A model generated the notes under the pieces. It did no database searches and was not told the DNA's origin. It saw nothing but the letters and a program-made list of their open reading frames with translations. From IMG/VR virus record IMGVR_UViG_2939177367_000001: a stretch of DNA of 47,553 nt; one strand, 5' to 3'. Origin of the DNA: a virus. Lineage: Duplodnaviria; Heunggongvirae; Uroviricota; Caudoviricetes. Made by a program: the position numbers and the translations under genes. Below, one piece after another: positions 2,850 through 19,629 of this stretch (position 1 is its first letter; every line of letters starts with the position of its first letter).

Positions 2850-3154
2850 TATTTCACCTCTTGTTGTGACATTGTTGAAAAATGGATACCAGCTCGTTGC
2901 TGCCAGACGATCCAACCGAGAGTCATATCCCATGCCATGTATTCGTTATCGCCGTTTTTTGCTCTCCGACGATCTACTAAGTCACCGAAACGCTTTTCCA
3001 TGAATAATTCATAAGCTTCGCGTTCATCTGGTTCTACTTCCAGAGATAGGAGTGCGATTTCATAAGCACGGCGCTCAATATCGTCTCGCACGTCAAGGCT
3101 GCTGATACGCTCTTTAATTTCTTTAATCAGTTCTTTGTCGGTAAAAGTGGTCAT
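2849..3154 (-). CDS. hypothetical early-left protein (101 aa)
   Basis: ORF with GGAG RBS 5 nt before ATG; acidic, protein-like composition; translationally coupled to neighbours. Confidence 0.5.
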   Translation of the reverse strand: MTTFTDKELIKEIKERISSLDVRDDIERRAYEIALLSLEVEPDEREAYELFMEKRFGDLVDRRRAKNGDNEYMAWDMTLGWIVWQQRAGIHFSTMSQQEVK

Positions 3155-3516
3155 TATGCTCCAGCCTCCGGTGCTTTTGGCATTACTGCCCAGTGAGTGA
3201 TATTGACGTTTTCAAGGTCCCCGACCTGAAATGTCCACTGCCATTCTCCGGTTTCTTTTTGTCCCCAGGTGTACCAGAGAGAACGCCAGCCAATTAGCCA
3301 GCCTTCTCCGTTAGCATCGAATAACAAAACACTTTCATTTGCTGGTGGCAGTTCAGTTGACACTGGTATTACTTTGTTTTCCTGTGCTGCACATTTAGCT
3401 TCAAGCGCATCGAATTTACGCACCAGGTATTCAGCATCCGTTTCATTCACTTTCAGATCTCGCGGTACACATCTCCCACGAAGAAACCCTTCCATTTCGA
3501 AAACATTCATGCGCAT
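3154..3516 (-). CDS. hypothetical early-left protein (Trp-rich, possibly DUF551-like)
   Basis: 120-aa ORF with GGAG RBS; family assignment is from memory of motif style only. Confidence 0.45.
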   Translation of the reverse strand: MRMNVFEMEGFLRGRCVPRDLKVNETDAEYLVRKFDALEAKCAAQENKVIPVSTELPPANESVLLFDANGEGWLIGWRSLWYTWGQKETGEWQWTFQVGDLENVNITHWAVMPKAPEAGA

Positions 3517-10314: not shown

Positions 10315-11310
10315 GTGACCGTGAGAGCACTACTGACCCCTGAAATTGCCCCGCGTATGGGGATCGTATTGTTCAGGCCAGGTTCAGAGCTGATGCCCTT
10401 GTTTATGCAGGGGCGTGTCCTGCTGGAGCCTGAGCCGGAACGTTATTCATCTTTCGCCAGTGGTGCCGTTCCCGCGGCATCACAACCGCTGGCGGATGAT
10501 CCTGCCGTTCGGGCCGTGTTCCGCAATGAGGCAGTGATCCGTCGTGCTGGTGGCGTGGAATGTCTTGAAAGCTGGTTACTTCGTGAAAAAGGCTGCCAGT
10601 GGCTTCATTCCGACTGGCACAGCGAGAACATGACAACAATGCGACACGCTCCGGGCGCAATCCGTCTGTGCTGGCACTGCGATAACCAGCTGCGCGATCA
10701 GTTCACGGAACGGCTGGAATCAATGGCAACGGATAACTGTGCCCGCTGGGTGTTGTCTGTTGTGCGTCGGGATCTCGGTTTTGATGACAGTCACGTTGTG
10801 ACAATGCCGGAACTGTGCTGGTGGCTGATTCGTAATGACCTGGCGGACGCCTTACCGGAAAGTGCAGCCCGTAAGGCACTGAGATTACCGAAGCCTGTTG
10901 TGCCGTCTGTCACCCGGGAAAGTGACCTTGTGCCTTCGGTTCCTGCCACCAGCATCATCCAGGATAAGGCGAAAAAGGTGCTGGCGCTGAAAGTGGATCC
11001 GGAGTCGCCGGAGTCTTTTATGTTACGCCCAAAACGTCGCCGCTGGGTTAATGAAAAGTACACGCGCTGGGTTAAGACACAGCCGTGTGCATGTTGTGGA
11101 AAGCCCGCTGATGATCCCCACCACCTGATAGGTCACGGTCAGGGTGGAATGGGAACAAAAGCGCATGACCTTTTTGTGTTGCCTTTGTGCAGAAAGCATC
11201 ACGACGAGCTGCATGCGGATACCGTGGCATTTGAAGAGAAGTATGGCTCCCAGCTGGAGCTGATATTTCGTTTTATCGATCGTGCGCTGGCAATAGGTGT
11301 ACTGGCGTAA
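10315..11310 (+). CDS. DUF968-family protein with Cys/His-rich C-terminus (331 aa)
   Basis: C-terminal CACCGKPADDPHHL...CRKHHDELH motif recalled as DUF968, common in lambdoid nin regions. Confidence 0.55.
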   Translation: MTVRALLTPEIAPRMGIVLFRPGSELMPLFMQGRVLLEPEPERYSSFASGAVPAASQPLADDPAVRAVFRNEAVIRRAGGVECLESWLLREKGCQWLHSDWHSENMTTMRHAPGAIRLCWHCDNQLRDQFTERLESMATDNCARWVLSVVRRDLGFDDSHVVTMPELCWWLIRNDLADALPESAARKALRLPKPVVPSVTRESDLVPSVPATSIIQDKAKKVLALKVDPESPESFMLRPKRRRWVNEKYTRWVKTQPCACCGKPADDPHHLIGHGQGGMGTKAHDLFVLPLCRKHHDELHADTVAFEEKYGSQLELIFRFIDRALAIGVLA

Positions 11311-11323
11311 GTGGAGAACGAGC

Positions 11324-12076
11324 ATGAACCTTGAAGCCTTACCGAAATATTACTCCCCAAAATCTCCAAAATTGAGCGATGACGCACCGGCGACAGGCTC
11401 TGGTGGTTTAACAATTACGGATGTGATGGCTGCGCAGGGGATGGTGCAGTCGAAAGCACCGCTTGGGTTTGCCTTATTCCTGGCAAAAGTTGGTGTTCAG
11501 GATCCTCAGTTTGCGATTGAAGGTCTGCTCAATTACGCGATGGCACTGGATAACCCGACATTGAATAAATTGAGTGAAGAAACCCGGCTACAGATTATTC
11601 CTTACCTTGTGAATTTTGCCTTTGCTGATTATTCCAGGTCTGCGGCAAGTAAGGCTCGCTGTGAGCATTGTGCTGGTACTGGATTTCATAATGTATTGCG
11701 CGAAGTGGTGAAACACTCCAGAAGCGGGGAATCTGTTATCAAGGAAGAGTGGGTGAAGGAACTATGTCAGCATTGTCATGGTAAGGGAGAAGTCAGCACA
11801 GCGTGCAGAGGGTGTAAGGGTAAAGGTATTGTCCTGGATGAAAAAAGGACCCGGCTTCATGGCACGCCTGTTTATAAGATTTGTGGGCGTTGCAATGGAA
11901 ATCGGTTTAGCCGTTTACCGACCACACTGGCGCGGCATCATGTCCAGAATCTGGTAACAGACCTGACGGATTATCAGTGGTACAAAGGATATGCAGACGT
12001 CATTGATAAACTGGTTACAAAGTGCTGGCAGGAAGAAGCATATGCTGAAGCGCAATTGAGAAAAGTGACAAGATAA
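11324..12076 (+). CDS. Q: late-gene antiterminator Q (250 aa)
   Basis: CxxC...CxxC zinc-binding core (CEHCAGTG, CQHCHGKG, CRGCKGKG) and position before the lysis cassette; GGAG RBS. Confidence 0.75.
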   Translation: MNLEALPKYYSPKSPKLSDDAPATGSGGLTITDVMAAQGMVQSKAPLGFALFLAKVGVQDPQFAIEGLLNYAMALDNPTLNKLSEETRLQIIPYLVNFAFADYSRSAASKARCEHCAGTGFHNVLREVVKHSRSGESVIKEEWVKELCQHCHGKGEVSTACRGCKGKGIVLDEKRTRLHGTPVYKICGRCNGNRFSRLPTTLARHHVQNLVTDLTDYQWYKGYADVIDKLVTKCWQEEAYAEAQLRKVTR

Positions 12077-12230: not shown

Positions 12231-12761
12231 ATGTTATACCGAGATCTTCTGCCTATTTTCTCAGAAAGAACCATATTTGAAGCTCCTGAGGCTGAAAGAA
12301 TACTTCGTGAGCAATATTCTATCATTGCCCCCTCTCCTGTAATTCAGGAGATTTATTATGGATTGGTAGGCGATGACAGATTTCAGAAGCTTTATGGGGA
12401 TCTTGATATTGACCAAATTGAATGGAAATTGATTGAACTTCCCACTAAAAACTTTTTAACTATCGGGGATAATGCTACTTGCCCTGATTTTTTGCATGAG
12501 GTCGTTGAAGATTACATGACCCGTAAAGGTGATGTATTTATGGATGATGAAATAAAAGCGCATTGGTGTAATTTTGGCACATGGTGCGAACCACCATTTT
12601 TTATAGATCGAGCTTTGCTGAAAAGTAATACAACAGGGCTCCATTTAATGGAAGGGCATACAAGAGTTGGAACCCTGTTAGGGGCAGTTAAGTATAACTT
12701 CGTTAAGCTTGCTAATACTCATAAAATTTATTATGCGCAAGCAAAAGAATGTATTAAATAA
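12231..12761 (+). CDS. hypothetical moron protein (176 aa), AT-rich
   Basis: Long ORF in AT-rich DNA between Q and the lysis genes; followed by a strong terminator. Confidence 0.55.
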   Translation: MLYRDLLPIFSERTIFEAPEAERILREQYSIIAPSPVIQEIYYGLVGDDRFQKLYGDLDIDQIEWKLIELPTKNFLTIGDNATCPDFLHEVVEDYMTRKGDVFMDDEIKAHWCNFGTWCEPPFFIDRALLKSNTTGLHLMEGHTRVGTLLGAVKYNFVKLANTHKIYYAQAKECIK

Positions 12762-13137: not shown

Positions 13138-13286
13138 AGGGCTTTTAATTTGTGAAAATGGGCGGCTGGTGGGTGTTGGTAGCACCTGCCAGCCATTCGC
13201 TCATGCTTACTGGTCACAAGCGAACCACGGCCCACTGCTTTAGCGCAAAAGCAGAGTGAGCCTACCAGAGTTACGCTTACTGATCC

Positions 13287-14339
13287 ATGAAAAATACTGT
13301 AAAAATAAACAGTGTTGATTTAATCAACGCTGATTGCCTGCATTTTATTCAGTCCCTGCCTGATGATTCCATTGACCTGATTGTTACCGATCCGCCGTAC
13401 TTCAAGGTGAAACCCAACGGCTGGGACAATCAGTGGAAAGGGGACGAAGATTACCTTAAGTGGCTGGACCACTGTCTGGCCCAGTTCTGGCGGGTGTTAA
13501 AGCCTGCCGGAAGCCTTTACCTGTTCTGTGGGCATCGCCTGGCATCTGATATTGAGATCATGATGCGTGAACGTTTCAACGTGCTTAACCATATCATCTG
13601 GGCGAAGCCGTCCGGACGTTGGAATGGGTGTAATAAAGAAAGTCTGCGCGCATATTTTCCTGCCACAGAGCGCGTTCTGTTTGCTGAACATTACCAGGGG
13701 CCATATCGCGGCAAAAGTGACGGCTATGCGGCAAAAGAAAGGGAACTCAAACAGCACATAATGGCACCGCTGATATCGTATTTCAGGGATGCTCGTGCCG
13801 AACTGGGTATAACGGCAAAACAAATTGCCGAAGCCACAGGTAAGAAAAATATGGTTTCCCACTGGTTTGGTGCCAGTCAGTGGCAGTTGCCGAATGAGGC
13901 TGACTATCGGAAGTTACAGGCACTGTTTTCCCGTATAGCGGCAGAGAAGTTTCAGGAACAACAACTGGAACAACCACACCACCAGCTGGTGGCATCTTAT
14001 GATTCACTGAATCGCAAATATTCTGAATTGCTGGATGAGTTTAAATCTCTCCGGCGCTATTTCTCCGTATCAGTCTCCGTGCCTTATACCGATGTCTGGA
14101 TGCATAAACCCGTTCAGTTCTACCCGGGTAAACATCCGTGTGAGAAACCTGCGGATATGCTCCGGCAAATAATCAATGCCAGTAGTCGACCTGGTGATCT
14201 GGTTGCTGATTTTTTTATGGGATCCGGTTCCACAATAAAAGCAGCAATGGCGCTGGGGCGTCGGGCCTTAGGTGTTGAGCTTGAGTCAGAGCGGTTTAAC
14301 CAGACAGTGAAAGAGATAAACGAGCTGGTGGGGAAATAA
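13287..14339 (+). CDS. DNA methyltransferase, DPPY motif (N6-adenine/N4-cytosine class), orphan (350 aa)
   Basis: Catalytic motif IV DLIVTDPPYF near N-terminus, C-terminal AdoMet-binding FFMGSGST; no cognate endonuclease adjacent. Confidence 0.8.
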   Translation: MKNTVKINSVDLINADCLHFIQSLPDDSIDLIVTDPPYFKVKPNGWDNQWKGDEDYLKWLDHCLAQFWRVLKPAGSLYLFCGHRLASDIEIMMRERFNVLNHIIWAKPSGRWNGCNKESLRAYFPATERVLFAEHYQGPYRGKSDGYAAKERELKQHIMAPLISYFRDARAELGITAKQIAEATGKKNMVSHWFGASQWQLPNEADYRKLQALFSRIAAEKFQEQQLEQPHHQLVASYDSLNRKYSELLDEFKSLRRYFSVSVSVPYTDVWMHKPVQFYPGKHPCEKPADMLRQIINASSRPGDLVADFFMGSGSTIKAAMALGRRALGVELESERFNQTVKEINELVGK

Positions 14340-14343
14340 TCTG

Positions 14344-14366
14344 GTGGCCACGTAGGTGGCCTTTTT
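14344..14366 (+). terminator. hairpin plus T-run upstream of holin
   Basis: GGCCAC-GTAG-GTGGCC stem followed by TTTTTA. Confidence 0.45.
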
Positions 14367-14405
14367 ATTTCCATTACACAGCACCCGCATCTGCGAGGTG
14401 GGGTT

Positions 14406-14621
14406 ATGAAATCCATGGATAAGTTAACAACGGGTGTCGCCTATGGCACCTCAGCAGGTAGTGCCGGGTACTGGTTTTTACAGTTGCTCGATAAAGTCAC
14501 GCCCTCACAGTGGGCGGCAATAGGTGTGCTGGGTAGTCTGGTATTTGGCTTGCTGACGTATCTGACAAACCTTTATTTCAAGATTAAAGAAGACAAGCGT
14601 AAGGCTGCACGGGGAGAGTAA
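14406..14621 (+). CDS. S: pinholin, phage 21 S21-like (71 aa) with dual-start motif
   Basis: MKSMDK dual Met start and sequence match recalled S21 pinholin. Confidence 0.85.
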
Positions 14622-14625
14622 TTCA

Positions 14626-14970
14626 ATGACTCAAAAATATGAACTGATTGTGAAAGGGATCCGCAATTTTGAGAATAAAGTTACGGTAACTTTAGCGTTA
14701 CGGGACAAAGAACGCTTTGACGGTGAAATTTTTGACCTGGACATCTCGCTGGACCGTGTTGAAGGTGCCGCGCTGGAGTTTTATGAGGCAGCAGCCAGAA
14801 GGAGCATCAGACAGGTCTTCCTGGATGTTGCTGCCGGGTTATGTGAAGGGGATGAGCTGTCGCCGGAAAAGCGCCCCATAATTTTAGAGGCGCAGAATGT
14901 GTGGATAACCTACAAAGGAAAGCTACCGGGAAGAATTACTGGTTCTCTGAAGACTCCGCCGAAATGGTAA
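14626..14970 (+). CDS. hypothetical protein (114 aa) inserted between holin and endolysin
   Basis: ORF with RBS directly after the holin stop; not part of canonical phage-21 lysis cassettes. Confidence 0.45.
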   Translation: MTQKYELIVKGIRNFENKVTVTLALRDKERFDGEIFDLDISLDRVEGAALEFYEAAARRSIRQVFLDVAAGLCEGDELSPEKRPIILEAQNVWITYKGKLPGRITGSLKTPPKW

Positions 14971-15208
14971 TTTCACCAGCATATTTTTCTTCCAGTAATA
15001 CCGCCAGCCACTTGAAAGAATTTTGTTGTTGCTGGGACCATTTGGGGTTGAGTGATTCAAGCTGGAGCGATGCCAGTGTTGGTTGCATTTGTTCCTTGGG
15101 AATTGAGAATGCCAGATATGAAAATGCGACAGTAAGGGCATTTACATCATCCCGAAGCTTGGAAATGCAGTCGAGCAACTCCTGTAGAGAAATGGTGCTA
15201 TTGTCCAT
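14936..15208 (-). CDS. hypothetical protein (90 aa), convergent with 14626..14970
   Basis: ATG with GAGAGGA RBS 6 nt upstream; 3' ends of the two genes overlap by 35 bp. Confidence 0.4.
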   Translation of the reverse strand: MDNSTISLQELLDCISKLRDDVNALTVAFSYLAFSIPKEQMQPTLASLQLESLNPKWSQQQQNSFKWLAVLLEEKYAGEITISAESSENQ

Positions 15209-15313
15209 AAACAATCCTCTCTATTGTATTTAACTATTCCTTGCCTGATTCAACAGGCCGGGACAGATAAACATATCCAGGGTTCAGAAACCGATAAATC
15301 CTGATAAATATCC

Positions 15314-15856
15314 ATGAACGTAAAAATCAGATACGGCCTGTCGGCTGCCGTTCTGGCACTGATTGCCGTCGGTGCGCCTGCGCCTGATATTCTCGACCAG
15401 TTTCTGAATGAAAAAGAAGGTAACCACACAACGGCATACCGCGATGGTTCCGGCATCTGGACCATCTGTCGGGGTGCCACGGTGGTGGATGGAAAACCCG
15501 TTTTTCCCGGTATGAAACTGTCGAAGGAAAAATGCGACCAGGTTAACGCCATTGAACGGGATAAGGCGCTGGCATGGGTGGAGCGCAATATTAAAGTGCC
15601 ACTGACCGAACCACAGAAAGCGGGTATAGCGTCATTTTGTCCCTATAACATTGGCCCCGGTAAGTGTTTCCCGTCGACGTTTTATAAGCGGCTGAATGCC
15701 GATGATCGTAAGGGGGCATGCGAGGCGATTCGCTGGTGGATAAAAGATGGTGGGCGTGATTGCCGCCTGACAAAAGGGCAGAAGAATGGCTGTTATGGGC
15801 AGGTCGAGCGGCGCGATCAGGAAAGCGCACTGGCGTGCTGGGGGCTGGAGCAATGA
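15314..15856 (+). CDS. R: SAR endolysin (lysozyme, phage 21 R-like, 180 aa)
   Basis: N-terminal signal-anchor-release segment YGLSAAVLALIAVGA followed by a lysozyme-like domain. Confidence 0.85.
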   Translation: MNVKIRYGLSAAVLALIAVGAPAPDILDQFLNEKEGNHTTAYRDGSGIWTICRGATVVDGKPVFPGMKLSKEKCDQVNAIERDKALAWVERNIKVPLTEPQKAGIASFCPYNIGPGKCFPSTFYKRLNADDRKGACEAIRWWIKDGGRDCRLTKGQKNGCYGQVERRDQESALACWGLEQ

Positions 15857-16053
15857 AAATTAATCCGGATCTTATAGGCGTTGTCGTTATTGCTGGCCTT
15901 TCGGTCGCTCTCGTCAAGAGTTGCTCTCACGCCAGTAATCTTCAGAGCGATAACGACGTTCTGCGAAGTGACAACTCTATGCTGGGGCAGGTAATCGCCA
16001 CCCAGGCATTCAACTTCAATCGATTCAATCAGGTTGCAGAACATGCCAACTGA
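15853..16053 (+). pseudogene. Rz: Rz (i-spanin) N-terminal fragment, truncated by IS insertion; C-terminal remainder in frame at 17364..17702
   Basis: Start overlaps endolysin stop (ATGA); TM segment LIGVVVIAGLSVALV; stop codon is supplied by the first three bases of the IS; reading frame resumes after the IS and the AAC duplication. Confidence 0.7.
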
Positions 16054-16104
16054 ACCGCCCCGGGAATCCTGGAGACTAAACTTCCTGAGAAAGAGGTAAA
16101 CAGG

Positions 16105-16431
16105 ATGACTAAAAATACTCGTTTTTCCCCCGAAGTCCGTCAACGGGCAGTCCGTATGGTTCTGGAAAGTCAGAGCGAATATGACTCACAATGGGCGACA
16201 ATTTGTTCCATTGCTCCAAAGATTGGCTGTACGCCGGAGACTCTGCGTGTCTGGGTTCGCCAGCATGAGCGGGATACCGGGGGCGGTGATGGAGGGCTCA
16301 CCACCGCTGAACGTCAGCGTCTGAAAGAGCTGGAACGTGAAAATCGTGAACTGCGCCGCAGTAACGATATCCTTCGCCAGGCTTCCGCTTATTTTGCGAA
16401 GGCGGAGTTCGACCGCCTCTGGAAAAAATGA
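16105..16431 (+). CDS. IS629-like transposase OrfA (108 aa)
   Basis: HTH plus leucine-zipper protein matching recalled IS629 OrfA. Confidence 0.9.
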
Positions 16432-17318
16432 TGCCACTGCTGGATAAGCTGCGTGAGCAGTACGGGGTCGGACCGCTATGCAGCGAACTGCATATTGCCC
16501 CGTCAACGTATTACCACTGTCAGCAACAGCGACATCATCCGGATAAACGCAGTGCCCGTGCGCAGCGCGATGACTGGCTGAAGAAAGAGATACAGCGCGT
16601 ATACGATGAAAATCACAAGGTATACGGTGTGCGTAAAGTCTGGCGTCAGTTGTTACGGGAAGGTATCAGAGTGGCCAGATGCACTGTGGCACGTCTCATG
16701 GCGGTTATGGGACTTGCCGGTGTTCTCCGGGGTAAAAAGGTCCGTACGACCATCAGCCGGAAAGCCGTTGCCGCAGGCGACCGCGTAAACCGTCAGTTCG
16801 TGGCAGAACGACCTGACCAGCTGTGGGTGGCTGATTTTACTTACGTCAGCACATGGCGGGGCTTCGTCTATGTGGCGTTCATCATTGATGTGTTTGCCGG
16901 ATACATCGTGGGGTGGCGGGTCTCATCGTCCATGGAAACGACATTCGTGCTGGATGCACTGGAGCAGGCGTTATGGGCCCGTCGACCGTCCGGCACGGTC
17001 CATCACAGTGATAAAGGTTCTCAGTATGTATCGCTGGCCTACACACAGCGGCTTAAGGAAGCCGGATTACTGGCATCAACAGGAAGTACAGGCGACTCGT
17101 ATGACAACGCGATGGCGGAGAGCATCAATGGTCTTTACAAAGCGGAGGTAATACACCGTAAGAGCTGGAAAAACCGTGCAGAAGTGGAACTGGCCACACT
17201 CACGTGGGTGGACTGGTATAACAATCGACGATTGCTGGAAAGGCTGGGCCATACTCCTCCGGCAGAAGCAGAAAAAGCTTATTATGCTTCCATCGGAAAC
17301 GATGATCTGGCAGCCTGA
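16428..17318 (+). CDS. IS629-like transposase OrfB (DDE integrase core, 296 aa)
   Basis: DDE catalytic region (WVADFTY..., HSDKGSQY, ...[11 protein letters not shown]); overlaps orfA in the -1 frame across an A6 run, consistent with IS3-family frameshifting. Confidence 0.9.
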
Positions 17319-17430
17319 GTTCACAGATAAAACACTCTCCAGGAAACCCGGGGCGGTTCAAACAGTCTTAACTCCCTGATCGACACCAGCACCGAAAAAA
17401 CCGTAATCGAATACCGGGAGATTCTCCGCC

Positions 17431-17870: not shown

Positions 17871-18563
17871 TCAAATCTTATCTAACTCATTATAGGCTTC
17901 GATAATAAAAATTCTGATTTTAATAAGGCATGATTCAATGAAAGGAATTACTTCATGGTCATTCCCATGGAATCTTATTTTTTTCTCTTCGGTAATGACT
18001 ATGTTTAAAGGTACACCATTACCACTTCTTTGTAATTTCCCATTTTCGAAAGTAAAGTCTTCTAATTTTTTGCCATTGATGTGGTTGTTTTTAAAGAGAA
18101 TTTTTGCTGAGCTTCCTGCTGTGATTAAACCAAAACCATCTACGCTCACACTTAGGTCTTTAACAGAACTCTCTTCTCTTAAGGGGATTGGTTGTCTGTG
18201 CTTTACTTCATTAGTGAGATTACACATCATTTCCAACCAAGATTCGCCAGTGTGATAATCCTGTATAGAAGTAAAAATTTTATATAATGGAGAAGATGAT
18301 GGTGGGTTTATTTTTAGCGTCTTTGAGAAAAATTTATCAATAAACTCTCTTTTTCCGTAAGGGAAATATATTTTGGGGCGCTCATCATTACTGCGTGGAG
18401 AAATATATTTATCATAGGTATCATTAGCGAGATACTCTAAGGAACTTCGTAAGTTTTCCAAAATAGCTTTGACTTTTACAGGCTTGATATGCTGTGTCTG
18501 TCTCATTATGTCAAGACTTTCTTCAACTTCTTGCAATAAGTCCAACGAGCCTTCTCTAGACAT
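17871..18563 (-). CDS. hypothetical moron protein (230 aa) at the bor locus, AT-rich
   Basis: Long ORF in very AT-rich DNA, opposite strand to lysis and packaging genes, flanked by AT-rich promoter-like DNA; occupies the lambda bor position between Rz1 and terminase. Confidence 0.6.
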   Translation of the reverse strand: MSREGSLDLLQEVEESLDIMRQTQHIKPVKVKAILENLRSSLEYLANDTYDKYISPRSNDERPKIYFPYGKREFIDKFFSKTLKINPPSSSPLYKIFTSIQDYHTGESWLEMMCNLTNEVKHRQPIPLREESSVKDLSVSVDGFGLITAGSSAKILFKNNHINGKKLEDFTFENGKLQRSGNGVPLNIVITEEKKIRFHGNDHEVIPFIESCLIKIRIFIIEAYNELDKI

Positions 18564-19134: not shown

Positions 19135-19629
19135 ATGGATCGAGAGTTAAAAAATCTGACGCTGAATATCAGTCAACTGGCGGCACTGTCAGGTGTACAT
19201 CGCCAGACTGCTGCGGCAAGGCTGCAAAATCTACCCGTTGCAGGGGGGCATGAAAGCAACCTCAAGCTTTATCGGGTGGTTGATATTGTGTCGGCATTTC
19301 TGGCATTGCCACCGCCGGTTGCAGAAGGCGAAATGGACGCGCATGAGCGCAAAGCCTGGTATCAGTCTGAACGTGAGCGTCTTAAGTTCGAACAGGAAAC
19401 GGCACAACTCATTCCGGCCAGTGATGTCAGACGGGAGTTTGCCATCTGGGCAAAAGCGGTCGTGCAGGTGCTGGAGACATTACCGGATATTCTTGAACGT
19501 GACTGCGGTCTGCAGCCTGCCGCTGTGAGCCGTGTTCAGTCCATTATTGATGATCTGCGCGATCAGATAGCCCTGCGGGTGACTGAAGCAGGTGCGGATG
19601 ATGAGGAGGAATTACAGCAGGAGGAGTAA
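19135..19629 (+). CDS. terminase small subunit (164 aa)
   Basis: N-terminal HTH (LNISQLAALSGVHRQTAAARL), acidic C-terminus, directly upstream of and overlapping the large terminase. Confidence 0.65.
   Translation: MDRELKNLTLNISQLAALSGVHRQTAAARLQNLPVAGGHESNLKLYRVVDIVSAFLALPPPVAEGEMDAHERKAWYQSERERLKFEQETAQLIPASDVRREFAIWAKAVVQVLETLPDILERDCGLQPAAVSRVQSIIDDLRDQIALRVTEAGADDEEELQQEE

Follow-up and report, generated by a model that had tools for sequence, protein, structure and literature searches.

What occupies the space between the holin and the lysozyme genes of a phage 21-type lysis cassette? The question is raised by a stretch of 47,553 nucleotides (here called the window) from a virus of the class Caudoviricetes, IMG/VR record IMGVR_UViG_2939177367_000001. 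According to the list of open reading frames (ORFs) and the sequence, 692 base pairs (bp) separate the stop codon of the holin gene from the start of the lysozyme gene. The interval contains a plus-strand ORF of 114 amino acids (aa) (ORF-A, 14626–14970) and a minus-strand ORF of 90 aa (ORF-B, 14936–15208, from an ATG at 15208; an alternative TTG start at 15214 gives 92 aa, 14936–15214). The two are convergent, with a 3' overlap of 35 bp (14936–14970). The original prediction had read this arrangement correctly, as is confirmed by the ORF list, and had given each ORF its own ribosome-binding site; Shine-Dalgarno-like sequences indeed precede both, GGGGAGAG ahead of ORF-A and GAGAGG (15216–15221) ahead of ORF-B. 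It also proposed that the two ORFs form a single insert of about 690 bp, co-transcribed with the late genes and possibly acting as a toxin-antitoxin-like or lysis-modulating module.

The homology search suggested at that stage gives an identity to both proteins. ORF-A is ydfR, a member of DUF1327 and of phrog_406, and ORF-B belongs to phrog_2411. RefSeq and phage records already annotate both, and for ydfR, which is a Pfam family, there is a first biochemical lead. What is added here is the limits of the insertion, a cargo slot with alternative antisense genes, a family of remote homologues for ORF-B, and the rejection of the toxin-antitoxin idea. The account that we consider rather probable is that ydfR is co-transcribed with the late genes and probably acts on RNase E or RNA, that ORF-B is an unrelated antisense moron with its own promoter and probably encodes a protein-binding modulator, and that the overlap between them is incidental.

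A cargo slot between ydfR and the lysozyme gene

When the window is aligned with phages that do not carry ORF-B, homology extends up to position 14965 and resumes at 15258. Between the junctions 14965/14966 and 15257/15258, 292 bp (14966–15257) replace 19 bp of the ORF-B-less allele of PhiR40_1. This segment contains codons 1–81 of ORF-B and 49 bp of upstream sequence, and an inverted repeat, GCCTG-N6-CAGGC (15243–15258), is found at its right edge. The two-gene insert of about 690 bp is thus reduced to a 292-bp insertion carrying ORF-B, and ydfR is a resident of the cassette. The base composition is of the kind expected for a moron, with a GC content of 0.44 in ORF-B and 0.38 in its upstream sequence, as against 0.50 for the window and 0.54 for the lysozyme gene. 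The same is true of its presence or absence between collinear genomes with sharp junctions (292 versus 19 bp, with three alleles at the site).

The third allele is a different cargo, here called type II, which is found for example in PhiR63_1 and whose breakpoints, 14962 and 15270, almost coincide with those of the ORF-B insert (about codon 112 of ydfR and some 45–55 bp upstream of the lysozyme gene). It adds 64–71 codons to ydfR, giving a YdfR of 176 or 183 aa, together with a different antisense ORF of 86 aa, which belongs to phrog_2572, is acidic (pI 4.6) and overlaps the longer ydfR by 53 bp. This ORF lies on the minus strand at 2732–2992 of locus L004 and at 2979–3239 of locus L097, and is unannotated in the PhiR63_1 record. 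The two cargoes are therefore alike in their junctions, in the convergent overlap and in the small acidic product, and differ in the codons added to ydfR. That the two antisense ORFs are homologous was considered and rejected: BLASTP finds nothing, and hhalign gives a probability of 0.5%. A cargo slot is thus bounded by the 3' end of ydfR on one side and by sequence some 50 bp ahead of the endolysin start on the other, and it exists in at least three states.

Counting as present any copy in which at least 80% of the query is covered, ORF-B occurs in 1120 of 5426 complete E. coli genomes, or about a fifth, and the type II cargo in 294, or about a twentieth; the carriers include laboratory B strains and Stx-converting phages. 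Only three phage records carry ORF-B, namely Chlobot, vB_EcoS-783R2 and phiSTEC1575-Stx2k. The first 225 bp of ydfR are present in 4250 of the same 5426 genomes (approximately 78%), often in several copies per genome. It was correctly seen that many S21-type cassettes lack these genes. ORF-B is absent beside most copies of ydfR.

It had further been assumed that in cassettes of this type the endolysin gene follows the holin gene directly. An S21-type holin is found in 438 phage records and YdfR in 101 of them, so that the assumption describes many phages, but not a large and annotated sub-lineage with YdfR, which includes H-19B, BP-4795 and many Stx1a phages. The closest described arrangement is the essQ-ydfR-rrrQ-rzpQ block of the Qin prophage of E. 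coli K-12, in which an S21-type holin is likewise followed 4 nucleotides (nt) later by ydfR, and then by lysozyme and spanin genes. The order of holin, ydfR and lysozyme is the same in the window and recurs in other loci examined. There are two differences. YdfR of Qin (P76160) has 103 aa and a C-terminus that is different after residue 74, compared with the 114 aa of the present protein; and in Qin ydfR abuts rrrQ directly, with no antisense gene, whereas here ORF-B lies between them. In the light of Qin, H-19B and the Stx1 phages, ydfR is a conserved part of this lysis-cassette lineage, and the view of the pair as an intruder has in this part to be given up.

ORF-B is a gene under purifying selection

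ORF-B gives a full-length match to the phrog_2411 profile (residues 1–90 of 90, E=2.2e-59) and is named 'hypothetical protein' in RefSeq (WP_000370545.1). The protein is acidic, with a pI of 4.3 and a net charge of −6.5, and is predicted to adopt a fold of four helices followed by a disordered tail (pLDDT 69.8). No match that would assign a function was obtained in Pfam, NCBIfam, PADLOC, PDB sequences, PDB folds or BFVD, and the other members of the family gave no credible match in Pfam, PADLOC, NCBIfam or PDB sequences.

An ORF that lies antisense to an operon might be a non-coding artefact, and the true feature might instead be an extension of ydfR or the plus-strand ORF of 110 aa at 14901–15233, which shadows it. 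The non-overlapping part of ORF-B was therefore compared across 20 distinct alleles. The ratio dN/dS is 0.31 in the ORF-B frame and 0.88–1.2 in four other frames, but the shadow frame, which shares the wobble positions of ORF-B, has an apparent ratio of 0.22, lower than that of ORF-B itself. A shadow ORF of this kind can fake a signal of purifying selection, and dN/dS alone is unable to pick the coding strand. The question was decided by stop codons: although the plus-strand frame is open in most of the close alleles, it gains one or two stops in the three most divergent ones, where ORF-B remains open, and in the homologue of locus L106 it is open over just 61 codons. It also has neither an ATG nor a ribosome-binding site, and its translation is rich in Ser and Cys and not protein-like. 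ORF-B, on the other hand, is preceded by a strong Shine-Dalgarno sequence, gives a folded model (pLDDT 70) and has remote homologues. We judge the 110-aa ORF to be the artefact, and the converse is hardly credible.

ORF-B is also maintained independently of its neighbours. Nonsense mutations are present in only 3 of 95 copies (the window and 94 fetched loci). In loci L089–L092 other sequence stands in place of ydfR codons 1–73 and what is left of the gene contains stops, yet ORF-B, at 76% identity, is intact. Among the E. coli loci the neighbouring genes are variable, with identities to the window of 74–100% for the holin, 61–100% for YdfR and 83–100% for the lysozyme. In Stx phages the genes downstream of ORF-B form a quite different cassette, with two holins and an M15 peptidase, and the joint falls precisely on the first start codon of that cassette. 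ORF-B is a genuine gene, under purifying selection and independent of ydfR.

Several of the loci have individual features. In some Stx2 phages, L086–L088 and L113 (phiSTEC1575-Stx2k), the block of S21 holin, ydfR and ORF-B precedes a second cassette, there is no lysozyme, and three holin-like genes stand in a row. In the Stx prophage locus L085 an element of the IS66 family (at about 2930–3000) lies some 41 bp upstream of the ORF-B start, where it cuts a TTGAAT element discussed below, and the lysis genes further downstream have been lost with it. The E. coli B strain C3029 (L112) has the whole essD-ydfR-ORF-B-rrrQ block, with ORF-B as WP_000370546.1, in a Rac remnant beside trkG. If BL21 and REL606 carry a remnant of the C3029 type, existing transcriptome and ribosome-profiling data for B strains could bear on the expression of ORF-B.

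A profile search of 1.84 billion representative proteins yielded 18 matches to ORF-B. Among them are remote homologues that are 81–97 aa long, have 26–56% identity to it and share the motif ELL..I..LR..VN.L..AFSYLAFS...E....TI.AL.FES.N. Their locations are diverse. P0188 (36% identity) lies between the lambda-like tail genes M and L, antisense to both; P0191 (35%) is directly after tail gene M on a short contig and P0186 (36%) is upstream of a terminase region, and both are again antisense. P0194 (26%) was found on short metagenomic contigs, and P0192 (30%) and P0184 (56%) in ordinary-looking chromosomal surroundings. P0195 (30%) is encoded on an enterobacterial chromosome between dinI and bssS (L116, 3001–3279). 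The gene for RNase E is about 1.7 kb away on the same contig, which caught our attention in view of the RNase E binding reported for YdfR (see below) and is probably a coincidence. Scans of viral contigs using the remote homologues as queries gave only two further loci. The family behaves as a moron, that is, as a small self-contained accessory gene which is found at various sites in late operons and consistently points against late transcription.

Morons of lambdoid phages, reportedly described by Juhala and Hendrix, by Barondess and Beckwith, and by Cumby et al., provide the natural comparison. The lambda moron bor follows Rz directly and is transcribed in the direction opposite to the late operon, and gp15 of HK97 is a moron among late genes. 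Like these, ORF-B adds a small gene to the late region of some genomes and is missing from others that are otherwise collinear, and it is lower in GC; like bor it points against late transcription, and its family recurs at different positions in late operons. There are also differences: no recognisable pair of promoter and terminator was found for it, its product is acidic and looks cytoplasmic rather than being a lipoprotein or membrane protein, and it sits inside the lysis cassette and takes its last codons from the neighbouring gene.

ORF-B faces the opposite way to the late operon. The late transcript therefore cannot serve as its mRNA, and it would need a promoter of its own. The claim that both genes are co-transcribed with the late genes therefore applies to ydfR, by position, and not to ORF-B. 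Within the insert, the 49 bp that precede the ATG contain, on the ORF-B strand, TTGAAT (15253–15248) and TACAAT (15228–15223) with a spacing of 19 nt, followed by the Shine-Dalgarno sequence GAGAGG (15221–15216); this set of signals (15216–15253), like the inverted repeat, keeps its position in most of the diverged ORF-B alleles. The two hexamers are at best a weak promoter, below the threshold of the scan. Promoter and terminator scans of the window and four related loci gave no consistent promoter or terminator for ORF-B. A weak terminator candidate, a hairpin followed by UUUU with a folding energy of −11.8 kcal/mol, lies on the same strand at 14893–14865, 43 nt past the ORF-B stop and inside ydfR; it is not specific to alleles with ORF-B. 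The fold of the 3' flank of ORF-B is unremarkable, with a z-score of −0.73.

YdfR and the meaning of the overlap

ORF-A matches DUF1327/YdfR (PF07041) over residues 1–112 with 145.1 bits (E=7.6e-43), where the gathering score is 25, and its whole length matches phrog_406 (E=2.6e-67). It begins 4 nt past the holin stop, with no terminator in between, and is therefore part of the late transcript. YdfR occurs in size classes of 114, 116, 176/183 and 104 aa, which have residues 1–112 in common and then diverge, except that the K-12 form departs after residue 74. The N-terminal domain (residues 1–74) has 82% identity to K-12 YdfR and is predicted to consist of three β-strands and a helix. Residues 75–112 are a C-terminal module common to the 116-, 176- and 183-aa alleles, and the final two codons (KW) and the stop are supplied by the insert.

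According to a study from 2026, K-12 YdfR binds the N-terminal catalytic half of RNase E, as seen in two-hybrid and co-purification experiments; the interaction surface is within YdfR residues 1–72, and YdfR also co-purifies with RNA (PMC13232886). Over-production altered few transcripts and caused no growth defect (PMC13232886). The RNase E-binding segment appears to be conserved in the present allele, judging from the 82% identity. Since RNase E binding and co-purification with RNA have been reported for this domain in K-12 YdfR, ydfR would most likely serve as a late-phase modulator of host RNA decay rather than as a lysis effector. Literature searches for ydfR together with holin, and for the RefSeq protein accessions, found nothing.

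Other phages have modulators of RNase E, such as Dip (gp37) of phiKZ, gp0.7 of T7 and Srd of T4. The target of Dip is the C-terminal scaffold of RNase E, and that of YdfR has been mapped to the N-terminal catalytic half. The predicted model of YdfR, which is of low confidence (pLDDT 57.6), does give a fold match to Dip, with weak scores.

The composition of the overlap bears on whether the two genes are coupled. The last nine codons of ORF-B and its stop (14936–14965) are antisense to the conserved end of ydfR, which is equally present in alleles that have no ORF-B, and these nine codons encode the low-confidence tail of the predicted structure. The insert has no stop codon of its own, and as a result ORF-B runs nine codons into ydfR antisense and creates the 35-bp overlap. 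The simplest reading is that the overlap is a by-product of the junction and not a designed antisense device.

On the basis of these observations, we hypothesise that two independent units have been placed side by side at a recombination hot spot in the S21/R21-type lysis cassette. One is ydfR, which would be expressed from the late transcript and modulate host RNA decay in the late phase. The other is the 292-bp moron, which would have been joined to ydfR by recombination without a stop codon of its own. ORF-B, pointing against late transcription, would be expressed from a promoter of its own, with the lysogen or early infection as the most plausible stage, and our best guess is that its product acts as a protein-binding inhibitor or modulator, as is typical for small acidic accessory proteins of phages. 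Some of the observations weigh against this. The connection to RNase E comes from the K-12 allele, which has a different C-terminus, and over-production of that protein altered few transcripts (PMC13232886). The consensus scan finds no sigma-70 promoter and no intrinsic terminator for ORF-B, and in the best promoter candidate the hexamers are 19 nt apart and the transcript would have hardly any leader. Neither structure nor sequence matches point to a function of ORF-B. Finally, in all five phage contexts the gene of the ORF-B family converges on a small ORF in the late direction, with an overlap of 7–35 bp, and such recurrent convergence could hint at functional coupling.

This last observation is a reason to consider a coupled pair, in which one of the two proteins, ORF-B or YdfR, would neutralise or regulate the other, as in toxin-antitoxin or effector-inhibitor systems, and so tune RNase E or lysis. 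The pattern of a convergent small partner with a short 3' overlap extends to every family member in a phage context, and at the same place the unrelated acidic ORF of phrog_2572 overlaps the longer YdfR by 53 bp. We nevertheless consider the pairing unlikely. Type II toxin-antitoxin genes are co-transcribed and always occur together, whereas these are convergent and separable in both directions: most copies of ydfR have no ORF-B, and ORF-B persists in L089–L092, where ydfR is deleted or decayed. ORF-B also stands beside variable holin, ydfR and endolysin alleles, it has relatives in unrelated contexts, and those on chromosomes lack a partner of this kind. Similarity of the partner ORFs to YdfR, or among themselves, is not significant. 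As regards known toxin, antitoxin or defence families, ORF-B matches nothing in Pfam, NCBIfam or PADLOC and ORF-A matches DUF1327 alone, and over-produced K-12 YdfR is not toxic (PMC13232886). A relationship between the partner ORFs and YdfR, or among the partners, had been sought directly and was rejected, since BLASTP gave nothing and a shuffle test gave p = 0.06–0.98; a C-terminal motif seen by eye in YdfR and the remote partners, KG...ITGSLK.PP, was dropped on the same test.

Orientation would equally be compatible with an effect of transcription itself, the protein being secondary: transcription of ORF-B in the lysogen might enter ydfR and the holin gene, or collide with late transcription, and so damp leaky lysis. 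On the ORF-B strand there is no strong terminator before ydfR and the holin gene, just the weak hairpin with its U4 at 14893–14865. However, purifying selection and the occurrence of remote homologues at unrelated sites show that selection acts on the protein, the scan gave no good promoter, and the same cargo is found beside quite different holin and endolysin alleles. We regard this as improbable as the principal function; antisense interference with the lysis genes might still occur alongside the action of the protein. A further proposal takes the slot itself as its starting point, as one dedicated to such cargo. Its alternative occupants (phrog_2411 and phrog_2572) might both be produced in the lysogen, with YdfR and RNase E or the lysis cassette itself as their target, and the convergent overlap would then be functional; such a product could, for example, inhibit late-gene products that leak through before induction and so keep them harmless. 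To this we give only a small chance. The account of two independent units is the one that we retain.

If that account is true, lysis biology is little changed, since ydfR is already catalogued and ORF-B becomes one more uncharacterised accessory gene of phages. However, ORF-B adjoins a protein newly reported to bind RNase E, which makes the locus a cheap place to seek a prophage-encoded regulator, and the locus would gain weight if ORF-B acts on YdfR, on RNase E or on lysis timing.

The surrounding lysis cassette and late region

The genes on either side are those of a phage 21-type cassette. The holin (14406–14621, plus strand, 71 aa) is an S21-type class II holin: it matches PF04971 (E=2e-35) and holin phrogs, and reading of the sequence shows a dual-start motif MKSM (M1/M4). 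The R21-type lysozyme (15314–15856, plus strand, 180 aa) matches PF00959 (E=1e-23); its N-terminus is rich in Gly and Ala, uncharged and similar in appearance to a SAR domain. There is no obvious Shine-Dalgarno sequence ahead of its start codon (15290–15316, CCTGATAAATATCCATG), and this stretch is conserved across all cargo states.

The late-gene context is provided by a Q antiterminator gene (11297–12076, PF03589), a DNA methylase gene (13287–14339, PF01555) and a terminase gene beginning at 19135. A 176-aa ORF that follows Q (12231–12761, plus strand) has no Pfam match, and nor does a 230-aa ORF between the lysis genes and the terminase gene (17871–18563, minus strand), which also faces backwards in the late region. 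An Rfam scan of 13200–16200 gave nothing relevant. Between the methylase and holin genes, a scan identified a terminator-like hairpin followed by a T-run (14346–14361, plus strand), which late transcription from the Q region has to read through.

Downstream of the lysozyme gene, the plus-strand spanin gene Rz is interrupted. Its 5' part (15853–16050) is followed by an IS629-like element of the IS3 family (16051–17360; 1310 bp, with terminal repeats TGAACCGCCCCGGG and a 3-bp target duplication, AAC), after which come the rest of Rz and Rz1. The cassette thus departs from the phage 21 type in having no intact spanin pair, and with Rz split in this way the prophage is probably spanin-defective. 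The reading frame of the Rz1 lipoprotein downstream of the element looks intact.

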